In this document: positions 41,547 to 46,282 of the stretch, piece after piece
Layout: each line of letters begins with the position of its first letter
Position numbering within the stretch: the first letter of the stretch is position 1
DNA from: Escherichia coli
GTDB lineage: Bacteria; Pseudomonadota; Gammaproteobacteria; Enterobacterales; Enterobacteriaceae
Strand: one strand, 5' to 3'
Length of the DNA stretch: 64,000 nucleotides
NCBI RefSeq assembly: GCF_041886205.1
Contig: NZ_CP169029.1
Translations under genes and position numbers: made by a program
The notes under the pieces: model-generated
Database searches by the model: none
Seen by the model: the letters and a program-made list of their open reading frames with translations, nothing else
What the model was told of the DNA's origin: nothing

Positions 41547-43592
41547 ATGACAACAATGAATCCTTTCCTTGTGCAAAGCACACTGCCGTATCTGGCTCCC
41601 CATTTTGATCAAATTGCCAATCATCACTATCGCCCGGCATTCGATGAGGGAATGCAGCAAAAGCGGGCAGAAATTGCTGCCATCGCGCTTAACCCGCAAA
41701 TGCCTGATTTCAACAATACTATTCTGGCACTGGAACAAAGCGGAGAATTACTTACCCGCGTTACCAGCGTCTTTTTTGCGATGACTGCGGCGCATACCAA
41801 TGATGAATTACAGCGTCTTGACGAGCAGTTTTCCGCTGAACTGGCGGAACTGGCTAATGATATCTATCTGAACGGTGAATTATTCGCGCGGGTAGATGCT
41901 GTCTGGCAGCGCCGTGAATCCCTGGGGCTTGATAGTGAATCCATCCGCCTGGTGGAGGTGATTCATCAACGTTTTGTCCTTGCCGGAGCCAAACTTGCGC
42001 AAGCTGATAAAGCAAAATTAAAAGTACTGAATACAGAAGCTGCGACCCTGACCAGCCAGTTTAACCAGCGATTACTGGCAGCAAATAAATCCGGCGGTCT
42101 GGTTGTGAACGATATCGCGCAGCTGGCAGGAATGAGTGAGCAAGAGATTGCGCTGGCGGCAGAGGCGGCTCGCGAGAAAGGTCTGGATAACAAATGGCTG
42201 ATTCCGCTGCTGAATACCACCCAACAACCGGCGCTTGCCGAAATGCGCGATCGTGCGACGCGTGAAAAACTGTTTATTGCGGGCTGGACGCGAGCGGAAA
42301 AAAATGATGCCAATGATACCCGCGCTATCATTCAACGTCTGGTGGAGATCCGTGCACAACAGGCAACACTACTTGGTTTTCCTCATTATGCCGCATGGAA
42401 AATCGCCGATCAGATGGCAAAAACACCCGAAGCAGCACTCAACTTTATGCGGGAAATTGTTCCAGCGGCGCGTCAACGTGCGAGCGATGAATTAGCCTCC
42501 ATACAGGCGGTTATCGATAAGCAGCAGGGCGGGTTTAGCGCGCAGCCGTGGGACTGGGCATTTTATGCCGAACAGGTCCGGCGGGAGAAATTTGATCTTG
42601 ATGAGGCGCAGCTCAAGCCATATTTTGAATTAAACACGGTGTTGAATGAAGGTGTATTCTGGACCGCGAATCAGCTCTTCGGTATTAAGTTTGTCGAACG
42701 TTTTGATATTCCTGTCTACCATCCTGACGTTCGAGTGTGGGAAATTTTTGATCATAATGGCGTGGGACTGGCGTTATTTTACGGTGATTTCTTCGCCCGT
42801 GATTCAAAAAGCGGCGGTGCATGGATGGGCAATTTTGTTGAGCAATCAACACTTAATGAAACGCGTCCGGTAATTTATAACGTCTGCAATTATCAGAAAC
42901 CCGCTGCCGGTGAGCCTGCGTTGTTACTCTGGGATGATGTCATAACCTTATTCCATGAATTTGGTCATACGCTGCACGGCCTCTTTGCCCGCCAGCGTTA
43001 TGCCACGCTTTCCGGCACCAACACGCCGCGTGATTTTGTCGAATTTCCGTCGCAAATCAACGAACACTGGGCAACGCATCCGCAGGTATTCGCTCGCTAC
43101 GCCCGGCATTATCAGAGCGGGGCAGCAATGCCTGACGAACTGCAACAGAAAATGCGTAATGCCAGCCTGTTCAACAAAGGGTATGAGATGAGCGAACTGC
43201 TTAGCGCCGCACTTCTCGATATGCGCTGGCATTGCCTGGAAGAAAACGAAGCAATGCAGGATGTCGATGATTTTGAATTGCGGGCGCTGGTGGCGGAAAA
43301 TATGGATCTTCCTGCTATACCGCCACGCTATCGCAGCAGTTATTTCGCCCATATTTTTGGTGGCGGATATGCCGCAGGTTATTACGCTTATCTGTGGACA
43401 CAAATGTTGGCCGATGATGGTTATCAGTGGTTTGTTGAGCAGGGCGGATTAACGCGTGAAAATGGGCTGCGTTTTCGCGAGGCGATCCTTTCCAGAGGTA
43501 ACAGCGAAGATCTGGAACGCCTGTATCGACAATGGCGCGGTAAGGCTCCTCAGATTATGCCGATGCTGCAACATCGTGGCTTGAACATATAA
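41547..43592 (+). CDS. dcp: dipeptidyl carboxypeptidase (M3-family Zn metallopeptidase)
   Basis: 681 aa from MTTMNPFLVQ...; HEFGH zinc-binding motif. Confidence 0.9.
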   Translation: MTTMNPFLVQSTLPYLAPHFDQIANHHYRPAFDEGMQQKRAEIAAIALNPQMPDFNNTILALEQSGELLTRVTSVFFAMTAAHTNDELQRLDEQFSAELAELANDIYLNGELFARVDAVWQRRESLGLDSESIRLVEVIHQRFVLAGAKLAQADKAKLKVLNTEAATLTSQFNQRLLAANKSGGLVVNDIAQLAGMSEQEIALAAEAAREKGLDNKWLIPLLNTTQQPALAEMRDRATREKLFIAGWTRAEKNDANDTRAIIQRLVEIRAQQATLLGFPHYAAWKIADQMAKTPEAALNFMREIVPAARQRASDELASIQAVIDKQQGGFSAQPWDWAFYAEQVRREKFDLDEAQLKPYFELNTVLNEGVFWTANQLFGIKFVERFDIPVYHPDVRVWEIFDHNGVGLALFYGDFFARDSKSGGAWMGNFVEQSTLNETRPVIYNVCNYQKPAAGEPALLLWDDVITLFHEFGHTLHGLFARQRYATLSGTNTPRDFVEFPSQINEHWATHPQVFARYARHYQSGAAMPDELQQKMRNASLFNKGYEMSELLSAALLDMRWHCLEENEAMQDVDDFELRALVAENMDLPAIPPRYRSSYFAHIFGGGYAAGYYAYLWTQMLADDGYQWFVEQGGLTRENGLRFREAILSRGNSEDLERLYRQWRGKAPQIMPMLQHRGLNI

Positions 43593-43636
43593 ACACCACC
43601 AATGGCTGTCCTGGAGATATCGCCAGGCCAGCCTGG

Positions 43637-44155
43637 TTATAGCAGTAATTGCAGCAGCTGGGCGAGGGCAAACCTCACCGCTAAAGCTAATACCGTTTCG
43701 CAGTCGCCAGCAAAATGCATAACCGCAGTATAGGTCTGGCCTTTAATATGCCACGCGAACCAGACGGTACCCGCTGGCGTACCATCTTCACCGCCCTCCG
43801 GTCCGCCGTAGCCGGTAATGGCAATACTGACATCAGCATCCGCACGCTCTATGGCACCGGTTGCCATTTCTGCTGCCACTTTCTCACTCACCGCAGAATA
43901 TCGTTCAAGAGATTGCTGGCTTACGCTGAGGATTTTCATCTTTGCCTGATCGGTGAAAGTAACAAAGCCTGCACCGTAAAATTTGGGTGTATCTTCAGCT
44001 GCACACAGGGCGCTAGCCAACTTACCGCCGGTGCATGATTCGGCGGTAGTTAAGCGTAATTGATCCGCGATTAGTCTTTGACTCAACGCGGATGTCAGGT
44101 TTTCAATAGTGTCGGTATCTGCAAGTTGTACAATTTTATCGCTATTAATGTTCAC
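43637..44155 (-). CDS. ydeJ: CinA C-terminal-domain (PncC-like) protein
   Basis: 172 aa with CinA-C type sequence. Confidence 0.8.
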   Translation of the reverse strand: MNINSDKIVQLADTDTIENLTSALSQRLIADQLRLTTAESCTGGKLASALCAAEDTPKFYGAGFVTFTDQAKMKILSVSQQSLERYSAVSEKVAAEMATGAIERADADVSIAITGYGGPEGGEDGTPAGTVWFAWHIKGQTYTAVMHFAGDCETVLALAVRFALAQLLQLLL

Positions 44156-44430
44156 TGTTTTTTGTCCACGCTTTTATATGTAAAGGTGATTTGCTTTTTC
44201 TGTATGCTCGTCCAATATAATAATTTTCAAACATATAAATCCGATTATTCTGAAAATATATTTAAGACTATTTGATCTTCTTAACTTTAGTGAGTTAAAT
44301 TCTCTGAATATTTGACAGCTAGTTGCCTGATTTTAAATGCCTTATAACAATTGGCAGTATTCTTATTTGGCAATTATAAAAATAGCAACCAGACTTAATA
44401 AGTCAAACCAAACGCAATTAAGGAGTCAGT

Positions 44431-44823
44431 ATGAAATTTCAGGCCATTGTATTAGCAAGTTTTCTTGTCATGCCTTATGCGTTGGCAGATGACCAGGGCG
44501 GTTTAAAACAGGATGCAGCGCCACCGCCGCCTCATGCAATAGAAGATGGCTATCGCGGAACCGATGATGCAAAAAAAATGACCGTTGATTTCGCAAATAC
44601 CATGCACGATGGCGCTTCGGTTTCACTACGCGGTAATTTGATTTCTCACAAAGGAGAGGACCGTTACGTTTTTCGCGATAAGAGCGGTGAAATTAATGTC
44701 GTTATTCCTGCGGCCGTCTTTGATGGACGAGAAGTTCAGCCGGACCAGATGATCAACATTAGCGGCAGTCTGGATAAGAAAAGCGCGCCGGCCGTCGTTC
44801 GGGTCACTCATTTGCAGAAATAA
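44431..44823 (+). CDS. ydeI: periplasmic OB-fold stress protein (YgiW/BOF family)
   Basis: 130 aa with signal peptide. Confidence 0.75.
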
Positions 44824-45077
44824 AAATAAATTAGCCTGATGGCCTGAACTACTGGGCCATTAGGGTATTGGGTTATGCTATTTGTCATCCTTTTATTTAC
44901 GATAATGCAGAGGTAATTTACAGAATTAAACACTTTTTTATCCGCTGATTTTGTTTTAAATCACAATGTTATCTCAGAGATGACTCATAACTTCGGATTT
45001 CTATGAAAATATTGACGTAATTTTGCTTTTCTCTCGTTAGAATAGCGCGCACAAGGAACTGTGAAAAAGGAGTGGCA

Positions 45078-45968
45078 ATGATCAAGAAGACAACGGAAAT
45101 TGATGCCATCTTGTTAAATCTCAATAAGGCTATCGATGCCCACTACCAGTGGCTGGTGAGTATGTTTCACAGCGTGGTCGCGAGAGATGCCAGTAAGCCA
45201 GAAATAACGGATAACCATTCTTATGGACTGTGCCAGTTTGGTCGGTGGATTGATCATCTGGGGCCACTCGATAACGATGAATTACCTTACGTTCGGCTAA
45301 TGGATTCTGCCCATCAACATATGCATAACTGTGGTCGGGAATTAATGCTGGCTATTGTTGAAAATCACTGGCAGGACGCGCATTTCGACGCCTTTCAGGA
45401 GGGGTTGCTTTCTTTTACTGCGGCATTAACCGATTACAAAATTTATTTGCTGACGATCCGTAGCAATATGGATGTTTTGACGGGATTGCCGGGGCGTCGG
45501 GTTCTTGATGAATCCTTTGATCATCAGTTACGCAACGCTGAGCCTCTGAATCTTTATTTAATGTTGTTGGATATTGACCGATTTAAATTGGTTAATGATA
45601 CCTACGGGCATTTAATCGGCGATGTAGTATTACGCACCCTGGCAACTTACTTAGCCAGTTGGACGCGTGATTACGAAACGGTTTATCGCTACGGGGGCGA
45701 AGAATTTATCATTATTGTCAAAGCGGCTAATGATGAAGAAGCATGTCGTGCAGGTGTCAGAATTTGCCAGTTAGTCGATAACCATGCCATCACGCATTCT
45801 GAAGGGCATATCAACATTACCGTGACAGCAGGTGTCAGTCGCGCATTTCCTGAAGAGCCTCTGGATGTGGTCATTGGAAGAGCAGACCGGGCAATGTATG
45901 AGGGTAAGCAAACCGGAAGAAATCGCTGCATGTTTATTGATGAACAAAATGTGATTAACCGAGTTTAA
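45078..45968 (+). CDS. dgcZ: zinc-sensing diguanylate cyclase
   Basis: 296 aa; N-terminal zinc-binding domain; GGDEF domain with RYGGEEF; RBS AAGGAG. Confidence 0.85.
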   Translation: MIKKTTEIDAILLNLNKAIDAHYQWLVSMFHSVVARDASKPEITDNHSYGLCQFGRWIDHLGPLDNDELPYVRLMDSAHQHMHNCGRELMLAIVENHWQDAHFDAFQEGLLSFTAALTDYKIYLLTIRSNMDVLTGLPGRRVLDESFDHQLRNAEPLNLYLMLLDIDRFKLVNDTYGHLIGDVVLRTLATYLASWTRDYETVYRYGGEEFIIIVKAANDEEACRAGVRICQLVDNHAITHSEGHINITVTAGVSRAFPEEPLDVVIGRADRAMYEGKQTGRNRCMFIDEQNVINRV

Positions 45969-46007: not shown

Positions 46008-46111
46008 GTCAACGATCCGTTATCAGTGCAGGAAAATGCCTGTTAGCGTAAAAGCAAAACACAAATCTATCCATGCAAGCATTCACCGCCGGTTTACTGG
46101 CGGTTTTTTTT
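46008..46111 (+). ncRNA. mgrR: MgrR-like small RNA; 5' end approximate
   Basis: About 100-nt unit between the PhoP-like box and a strong terminator (stem GCCGG/CCGGC then T8 at 46085-46111); K-12 context recalled from memory. Confidence 0.5.
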
Positions 46112-46186
46112 CGCCGTCATAAAAATCAGGCCCCTTGTACACAACTGTAACAAGGGGCCGGTTAGGTGAGGGATTATCTCCGTTCA

Positions 46187-46282
46187 TTAGTCATCCCATT
46201 TGTGGCTGAAATACGCGGCCAGAAAACCAGAAAATAAAATTATTCCCAGTACGGCCATAAAAACATTCATATTACCCAGCAT
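46187..46282 (-). CDS. mgtS: small membrane protein MgtS (YneM), 31 aa
   Basis: Below the track's 60-aa cutoff; translation MLGNMNVFMAVLGIILFSGFLAAYFSHKWDD; followed on the minus strand by a hairpin terminator. Confidence 0.7.
   Translation of the reverse strand: MLGNMNVFMAVLGIILFSGFLAAYFSHKWDD

Follow-up and report, generated by a model that had tools for sequence, protein, structure and literature searches.

The closest described counterpart of the DNA analyzed here is the leader of Escherichia coli ydeH (dgcZ), which, as later papers cite the work of Jonas et al. (2008, Mol Microbiol 70:236), is reportedly bound directly by CsrA; the exact footprinted nucleotides come to us second-hand, through those citing papers. 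The long leader of another CsrA target, pgaA, holds six CsrA sites. In the leaders of glgC, cstA, pgaA, nhaR and sdiA, one GGA overlaps the Shine-Dalgarno (SD) sequence and at least one further GGA lies upstream, and repression operates through blocked ribosome binding, with destabilization of the mRNA as a secondary effect (PMC4066749). The dgcZ leader resembles these five on both counts, but compared with them it is very short (27-29 nt) and has just two sites, of which the upstream one lies near the 5′ end. The leader of ycdT (dgcT) likewise belongs to the mRNA of a GGDEF gene and is directly repressed by CsrA (PMC4066749, PMC4844966); it has a single known CsrA site around the SD, whereas ydeH is described as having multiple sites around the SD and as one of the E. 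coli targets on which binding studies have been done (PMC4066749).

Direct CsrA binding, and the dependence of dgcZ translation and mRNA stability on CsrA, are taken here from the published literature. CsrA has been described as repressing ydeH translation directly (PMC10294631) and as destabilizing the transcript upon binding, and the mRNA has been reported as up-regulated and destabilized by CsrA (PMC4844966 for both). Ribosome profiling and RNA-stability data show that both the translation efficiency of dgcZ and the stability or half-life of its RNA are altered in a csrA mutant (PMC5694010). A biophysical model counts dgcZ among seven mRNAs whose two high-affinity ANGGN sites lie near each other and require minimal unfolding, and labels it 'well-characterized, repressed, Jonas 2008' (PMC6028588). 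In the Potts 2017 supplements, b1535 appears in GO tables only and in no CLIP peak list. The first-pass annotation of this DNA had proposed CsrA-type translational repression of dgcZ and a comparison with published CsrA targets as a check; ydeH/dgcZ is indeed among those targets (PMC4066749, PMC6028588; RegulonDB), published as a directly bound target with two sites, and the proposal is borne out.

The window, by which we mean the whole 64,000-nt stretch of E. coli DNA that was analyzed, carries the dcp-ydeJ-ydeI-dgcZ-mgtS locus in its E. coli K-12 form, and positions 44990-45077 are part of the ydeI-dgcZ intergenic region. The features on which the argument depends are as follows.

44431-44823: ydeI, BOF family, directly upstream neighbor of the dgcZ intergenic region
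45012-45017, plus strand: -35-like hexamer TTGACG, 20 bp upstream of the -10
45012-45026, minus strand: candidate CpxR-box-like direct repeat GCAAA-ATTAC-GTCAA, an 8/10 match to GTAAA-N5-GTAAA
45038-45043, plus strand: -10 hexamer TAGAAT, 5-7 nt upstream of two published 5′ ends, transcription starting 6-8 nt downstream of it
45049-45051, plus strand: transcription starts G45049 (29-nt UTR) and A45051 (27-nt UTR), both published 5′ ends
45049-45077, plus strand: dgcZ 5′ untranslated leader, 27-29 nt from the mapped starts
45050-45063, plus strand: predicted hairpin CACA[AGGAAC]UGUG with the upstream GGA (GGA1) in its loop; 4-bp stem only if the start is at or before C45050
45053-45057, plus strand: CsrA site 1, AAGGA (GGA1 at 45055-45057), mRNA +3/+5 to +7/+9
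45067-45072, plus strand: Shine-Dalgarno AAGGAG, also CsrA site 2 (GGA2 at 45069-45071), 5 nt before the ATG
45072-45109, plus strand: predicted weak long-range stem, GUGGCA (45072-45077) with UGCCAU (45104-45109), enclosing the start codon
45078-45968, plus strand: dgcZ (ydeH) coding sequence, a 296-aa CZB-GGDEF diguanylate cyclase

The assignment of 44990-45077 to the dgcZ leader region, made in the first-pass annotation, holds: the ATG at 45078 is the annotated start of dgcZ, and the product has CZB and GGDEF domains. The 297 bp from 44824 to 45120 are 100% identical to many E. coli chromosomes, including that of MG1655, and the region is present in 5382 of 5426 complete E. coli genomes; the element is thus the same as the ydeH leader of Jonas 2008, without any difference. 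In MG1655 the gene is b1535 (minus strand, 1,622,960-1,623,850), and coordinates were transferred by taking the MG1655 coordinate as 1,668,928 minus the window coordinate. The window and MG1655 are out of register by an indel somewhere in 41928-44823, so the source strain is K-12-like here and not necessarily MG1655 itself. Five of the 5403 matches to the dgcZ upstream region fall in records labeled as plasmid rather than chromosome.

Several known genes lie 3′ of dgcZ, namely the small-protein genes mgtT and mgtS at 46083-46282 on the opposite strand and, with its position carried over from MG1655, the sRNA gene mgrR at ~46014-46111 on the same strand as dgcZ. On the other side, an inverted repeat (CTGATGGCC...GGCCATTAG, 44836-44866) sits immediately 3′ of the ydeI stop codon; it has no T-run and was not reported by the terminator scan, and it may mark the end of the ydeI transcript.

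Two published 5′ ends locate the start of the dgcZ transcript. The transcription start site (TSS) table of Kim 2012 (PMC3415461, supplement file 2) lists ydeH at NC_000913.2 1621901 on the minus strand, with 5 reads and a UTR of 27, and its upstream string, ending ...TAGAATAGCGCGCA, maps to window positions 45001-45051, which places the start at A45051. In the supplement of Leistra 2018 (PMC6028588), the sequence given for the ydeH/dgcZ mRNA begins GCACAAGG / GCACAAGGAAC... and has its start codon at nt 30; its 5′ end maps to G45049. The leader used in that modeling is therefore the same 29-nt leader as the one described here, and the two AAGGA sites are the same as those of the Jonas 2008 element. 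Starts at 45049 and 45051 identify TAGAAT as the -10, since it falls within the 5-9 nt upstream of a mapped start that are expected for sigma70, and they place both GGAs inside the leader.

The upstream half of the proposed promoter fares differently. TTGACG...TAGAAT had been annotated at first pass as sigma70 promoter elements; both hexamers are present, and the -10 is backed by the two published 5′ ends, but TTGACG stands 20 bp from it, outside the 16-18 bp at which a sigma70 -35 is expected. A scan for the canonical sigma70 consensus with spacers of 16-18 bp found no promoter in 44700-45200, and direct reading of the hexamers at 16-18 bp from TAGAAT gives CGTAAT, ACGTAA and GACGTA, all poor matches to TTGACA. 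Given the 20-bp spacing and the empty scan, TTGACG and TAGAAT do not form a canonical -35/-10 pair, and TTGACG probably belongs to an activator box.

Within the mapped leader of 27-29 nt, both of the GGA motifs claimed at first pass are found, at 45055-45057 and, overlapping the SD, inside AAGGAG at 45069-45071. In CsrA dual-site binding, the reach of one dimer is roughly 10-63 nt, and the upstream GGA, 14 nt from the SD GGA, lies within it. Each GGA is part of an AAGGA, which is a listed primary CsrA site (PMC4066749); one of the two AAGGA sites is at the extreme 5′ end of the mRNA and the other forms the SD. An Rfam scan of 44300-45600 at E <= 1 matched no family. Fusions to cat that were made in EPEC could be placed on the window by mapping their primers: those ending at 45076, which include both sites, show little or no activity, while those ending at 45050 are active (PMC13131220). 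This result is consistent with CsrA repression but is indirect, because no csrA mutant was used, and the two sets of fusions differ also in their transcription-start context (PMC13131220). Taking the positions of the motifs together with the published binding and expression data, we consider 44990-45077 to be the promoter and 27-29 nt leader of dgcZ, repressed by CsrA through the two AAGGA sites, with a probability of roughly 0.93.

Predicted folds leave both sites accessible. With the G45049 start, the minimum-free-energy fold contains a 4-bp 5′ hairpin that presents GGA1 in its loop, and it places the SD GGA in a single-stranded linker; if transcription starts at A45051 instead, the hairpin is gone and GGA1 is predicted to be plainly single-stranded. 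The unpaired probability of GGA1 is at least 0.88 for 5′ ends from 45044 to 45052 with both 3′ ends tested (45110 and 45140), and its lowest value, 0.75 at one G, was obtained when the 5′ end was set at 45030, a position supported by no mapped TSS. GGA2 is unpaired with a probability of 0.76-0.99 in short constructs (~0.9 with a 3′ end at 45110) and of 0.1-0.3 in longer ones (3′ ends at or beyond 45120, for example 45140), because the long-range stem then extends into the SD. Across 3′ ends from 45100 to 45250, opening the AAGGA costs at most 1.25 kcal/mol at site 1 and 0.05-2.55 kcal/mol at site 2, varying with the 3′ extent. Structure prediction had been suggested as a check on the first-pass annotation, with burial of the GGAs in stable stems as the outcome that would speak against it; as both sites open at no more than 2.6 kcal/mol, neither GGA is predicted to be held in a stable stem.

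The behavior of the longer constructs raises the question of whether intrinsic structure, independently of CsrA, limits translation by pairing the SD and start codon with codons 9-12 (GGAGUGGCA / UGCCAUCUU). The GUGGCA/UGCCAU stem does appear in both the minimum-free-energy and centroid folds, it holds the SD GGA to an unpaired probability of just 0.1-0.3 once the 3′ end reaches 45120, and both of its arms are invariant in Escherichia. However, the arms lie in coding sequence, which makes their invariance uninformative, and invariant arms provide no covariation. The cost of opening the SD site is only the 0.05-2.55 kcal/mol given above, the leaders of E. fergusonii and Citrobacter are not predicted to form the same stem, and the SD is occluded no more strongly than in codon-order shuffles, of which 62 in 200 occlude it as much or more. 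An SD-sequestering stem as a selected feature, indistinguishable in this way from shuffled codons, was rejected, and we regard intrinsic structure as an unlikely substitute for repression by CsrA.

The 5′ hairpin invites another explanation, in which CACA[AGGAAC]UGUG would be chiefly a stability element acting against RppH and RNase E rather than a protein-binding site. Its predicted position, 1 nt from the G45049 5′ end, would suit such a role, as would the fact that effects of CsrA on ydeH have been reported at the level of mRNA stability. Against this, the stem is no longer than 3-4 bp and does not form in the fold with the A45051 start. Nor is it maintained among relatives: in E. albertii its inner pair is disrupted, and folding of the E. 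whittamii and E. fergusonii leaders gives no hairpin, whereas the GGA itself is invariant in these species. The sequences were too few and too similar for covariation in this hairpin, which is not conserved. Because the GGA is kept where the hairpin is not, the conserved property is an accessible GGA ~14-15 nt upstream of the SD GGA and not any particular stem; a role as mainly a stability element is very improbable.

Conservation was followed first within E. coli and then among orthologs of increasing distance. Between 45030 and 45095 (66 nt), 4477 of 5382 E. coli records match the window exactly, and the sampled variants carry only a T to C change in the spacer or a synonymous AAG-to-AAA codon change. 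One strain, E. coli ERL06-2503 (NZ_CP032795.1), has a 9-bp deletion (GTGGCAATG, equivalent to window 45072-45080) that takes out the dgcZ start codon together with the 3′ edge of the SD region; RefSeq still annotates dgcZ in this strain, as an 888-nt gene starting at the next ATC. Close orthologs, at 89-96% protein identity, were found among the matches listed in a genome contig search in three Escherichia species (divergent E. coli, E. albertii and E. whittamii), and a protein search added orthologs at 60-65% identity from E. fergusonii and several Citrobacter lineages. These more distant orthologs share the neighborhood, having ydeJ and ydeI on the upstream side or mgtS on the downstream side; mgtS adjoins dgcZ in Citrobacter too.

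All eight ortholog lineages have the SD-region GGA, at -9 or -10 relative to the ATG, and seven have the upstream GGA, at -23 or -24, with the upstream-to-SD spacing held at 14-15 nt in those seven despite changed flanks. With its flanks, the upstream GGA reads ACAAGGAACUGUG in E. coli and ACAGGACAUGAUG in E. fergusonii, while two Citrobacter lineages have ACAUCAAGGAUGUAUG. In these two Citrobacter lineages the leader (ACAUCAAGGAUGU, containing ACAUCAAGGAUGUAUG) is a near match to RUACARGGAUGU, which we take to be the CsrA SELEX consensus. The exception is a Citrobacter freundii-like lineage whose leader reads CAUCAGAAACG: the upstream GGA has been lost, and a tandem GGGAGGGAG occupies the SD position, so that its two GGAs are just 4 nt apart. 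This leader represents a naturally occurring departure from the twin-site layout.

The same comparison bears on whether the GGAs are coincidental, one being just part of a strong SD and the other a chance trinucleotide, with no dedicated regulator involved. Base rates in the window are compatible with coincidence. At least one GGA is expected in 18 nt with a probability of 0.19 (random 18-mers from this window), a GGA falls in the SD zone of 27 of the 44 crude gene starts in the window, and seven of these 44 (~16%) have at least two GGAs in -30 to -1. Nor is the half-consensus ACARGGA enriched over the whole window (13 seen, 11.9 expected). The GGA pair is real but does not exceed chance, and has little statistical weight by itself; with two or more GGAs in ~16% of crude starts, sequence alone is insufficient to establish CsrA control. 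Coincidence is nevertheless scarcely credible for this leader, for which direct CsrA binding and csrA-dependent expression are reported in the literature, and in which, in E. fergusonii and Citrobacter, the neighboring bases change but the upstream GGA stays at -23/-24.

The promoter is conserved in a comparable manner. In all eight lineages, exactly 20 bp separate the -35-like hexamer from the -10-like one; the former is TTGAC(A/G), or TTTACA in one lineage, and the latter is TAGAAT throughout Escherichia and TAAAAT, TAGACT or TAAGAT among orthologs at greater distance. The T-rich core of the spacer, TAAnTTTTCTTTT, is kept in all eight lineages, and the spacer contains no dyad. Judged from these conserved letters, a 20-bp spacer with such a core suggests a protein site, perhaps for CpxR, that takes the place of a normally spaced -35.

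We infer a candidate for that site in the CpxR-box-like repeat at 45012-45026, which is conserved among the orthologs. Read on the plus strand as TTGAC-GTAAT-TTTGC, it overlaps TTGACG and ends 11 bp before TAGAAT, and it is the sole match to the CpxR pattern with two or fewer mismatches inside 44973-45050. At that tolerance the pattern has 83 matches in the window as against 63 expected; matches are thus common, and the repeat is a candidate rather than a demonstrated site. The shortest active fusion of a 2026 EPEC study, which by its primers corresponds to window 44973-45050, is said there to carry 'only the CpxR box' (PMC13131220), and RegulonDB, as reported in the same study, gives dgcZ a CysB site, a CpxR site and two CsrA sites. 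Promoters with a pho box, which are served by OmpR/PhoB-family activators, have a direct-repeat box that lies roughly one turn of the helix upstream of the -10 and replaces a properly spaced -35, as the candidate box of dgcZ would; the dgcZ candidate differs in matching the CpxR consensus at only 8/10, a level at which matches are common. Farther upstream, two blocks in window 44925-44975, GAATTAAACACTTTTTT and TTTGTTTTAAATCACnnTGTTAnCT, have been conserved from E. coli as far as E. whittamii; the TTTGTTTTAAATCACnnTGTTAnCT block includes an imperfect palindrome at 44948-44967, and both blocks lie within the part said to hold a CysB box and a proposed YgbI box (PMC13131220).

MerR-type promoters have a spacer of 19-20 bp that contains a dyad-symmetric operator. 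That the near-consensus hexamers and 20-bp spacer make up a MerR-family, twist-activated promoter, in keeping with the copper and zinc connections of dgcZ, has next to no likelihood: the spacer length is invariant in eight lineages and copper induces dgcZ fusions, but this induction is attributed to CpxAR (PMC13131220), dgcZ is a member of the CpxR iModulon and of the RegulonDB CpxR regulon, what is conserved in the spacer is a T-rich direct repeat and not a palindrome, and a MerR-type operator was rejected because a search for dyad symmetry in or around the 20-bp spacer found none.

In the favored reading, the dgcZ promoter, which has a good -10 but lacks a -35 at the proper distance, would be activator-dependent and assisted by CpxR, the activator named in the literature; its transcript begins with the 27-29 nt leader. 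One CsrA dimer, as we infer from the 14-nt spacing and the established dual-site binding of CsrA, would bridge the 5′-terminal AAGGA and the SD AAGGA. Bound in this way, CsrA would occlude the ribosome-binding site and block the 30S subunit and translation initiation, and blocked initiation would secondarily hasten decay of the mRNA. Sequestration of CsrA by CsrB and CsrC would relieve repression and allow DgcZ to be made, upon which c-di-GMP would rise and PGA-dependent biofilm would be favored over motility.

CsrA control of the dgcZ leader is already known. The leader links the global carbon-storage regulator CsrA to c-di-GMP and to the switch between motility and PGA-dependent biofilm, a link established since 2008, so that its confirmation adds nothing to the biology. 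The locus has value as a positive control, in that a real CsrA target was picked out from sequence alone even though its motif pair is statistically unconvincing. What is new is minor and adds modestly to the published picture: a conserved spacer of 20 bp, accompanied by a candidate CpxR box, and a twin-GGA geometry that is conserved across Escherichia and Citrobacter. Together they may form a conserved composite module, in which a CpxR direct-repeat box, made up of TTGAC and the 5′ half of the spacer, replaces the -35 and is combined with fixed twin GGAs at -23 and -9; we hold this view tentatively, at somewhat less than even odds. If it is correct, TTGACG would be an activator site and not a -35, and the envelope-stress and Csr inputs to dgcZ would predate the split between Escherichia and Citrobacter.
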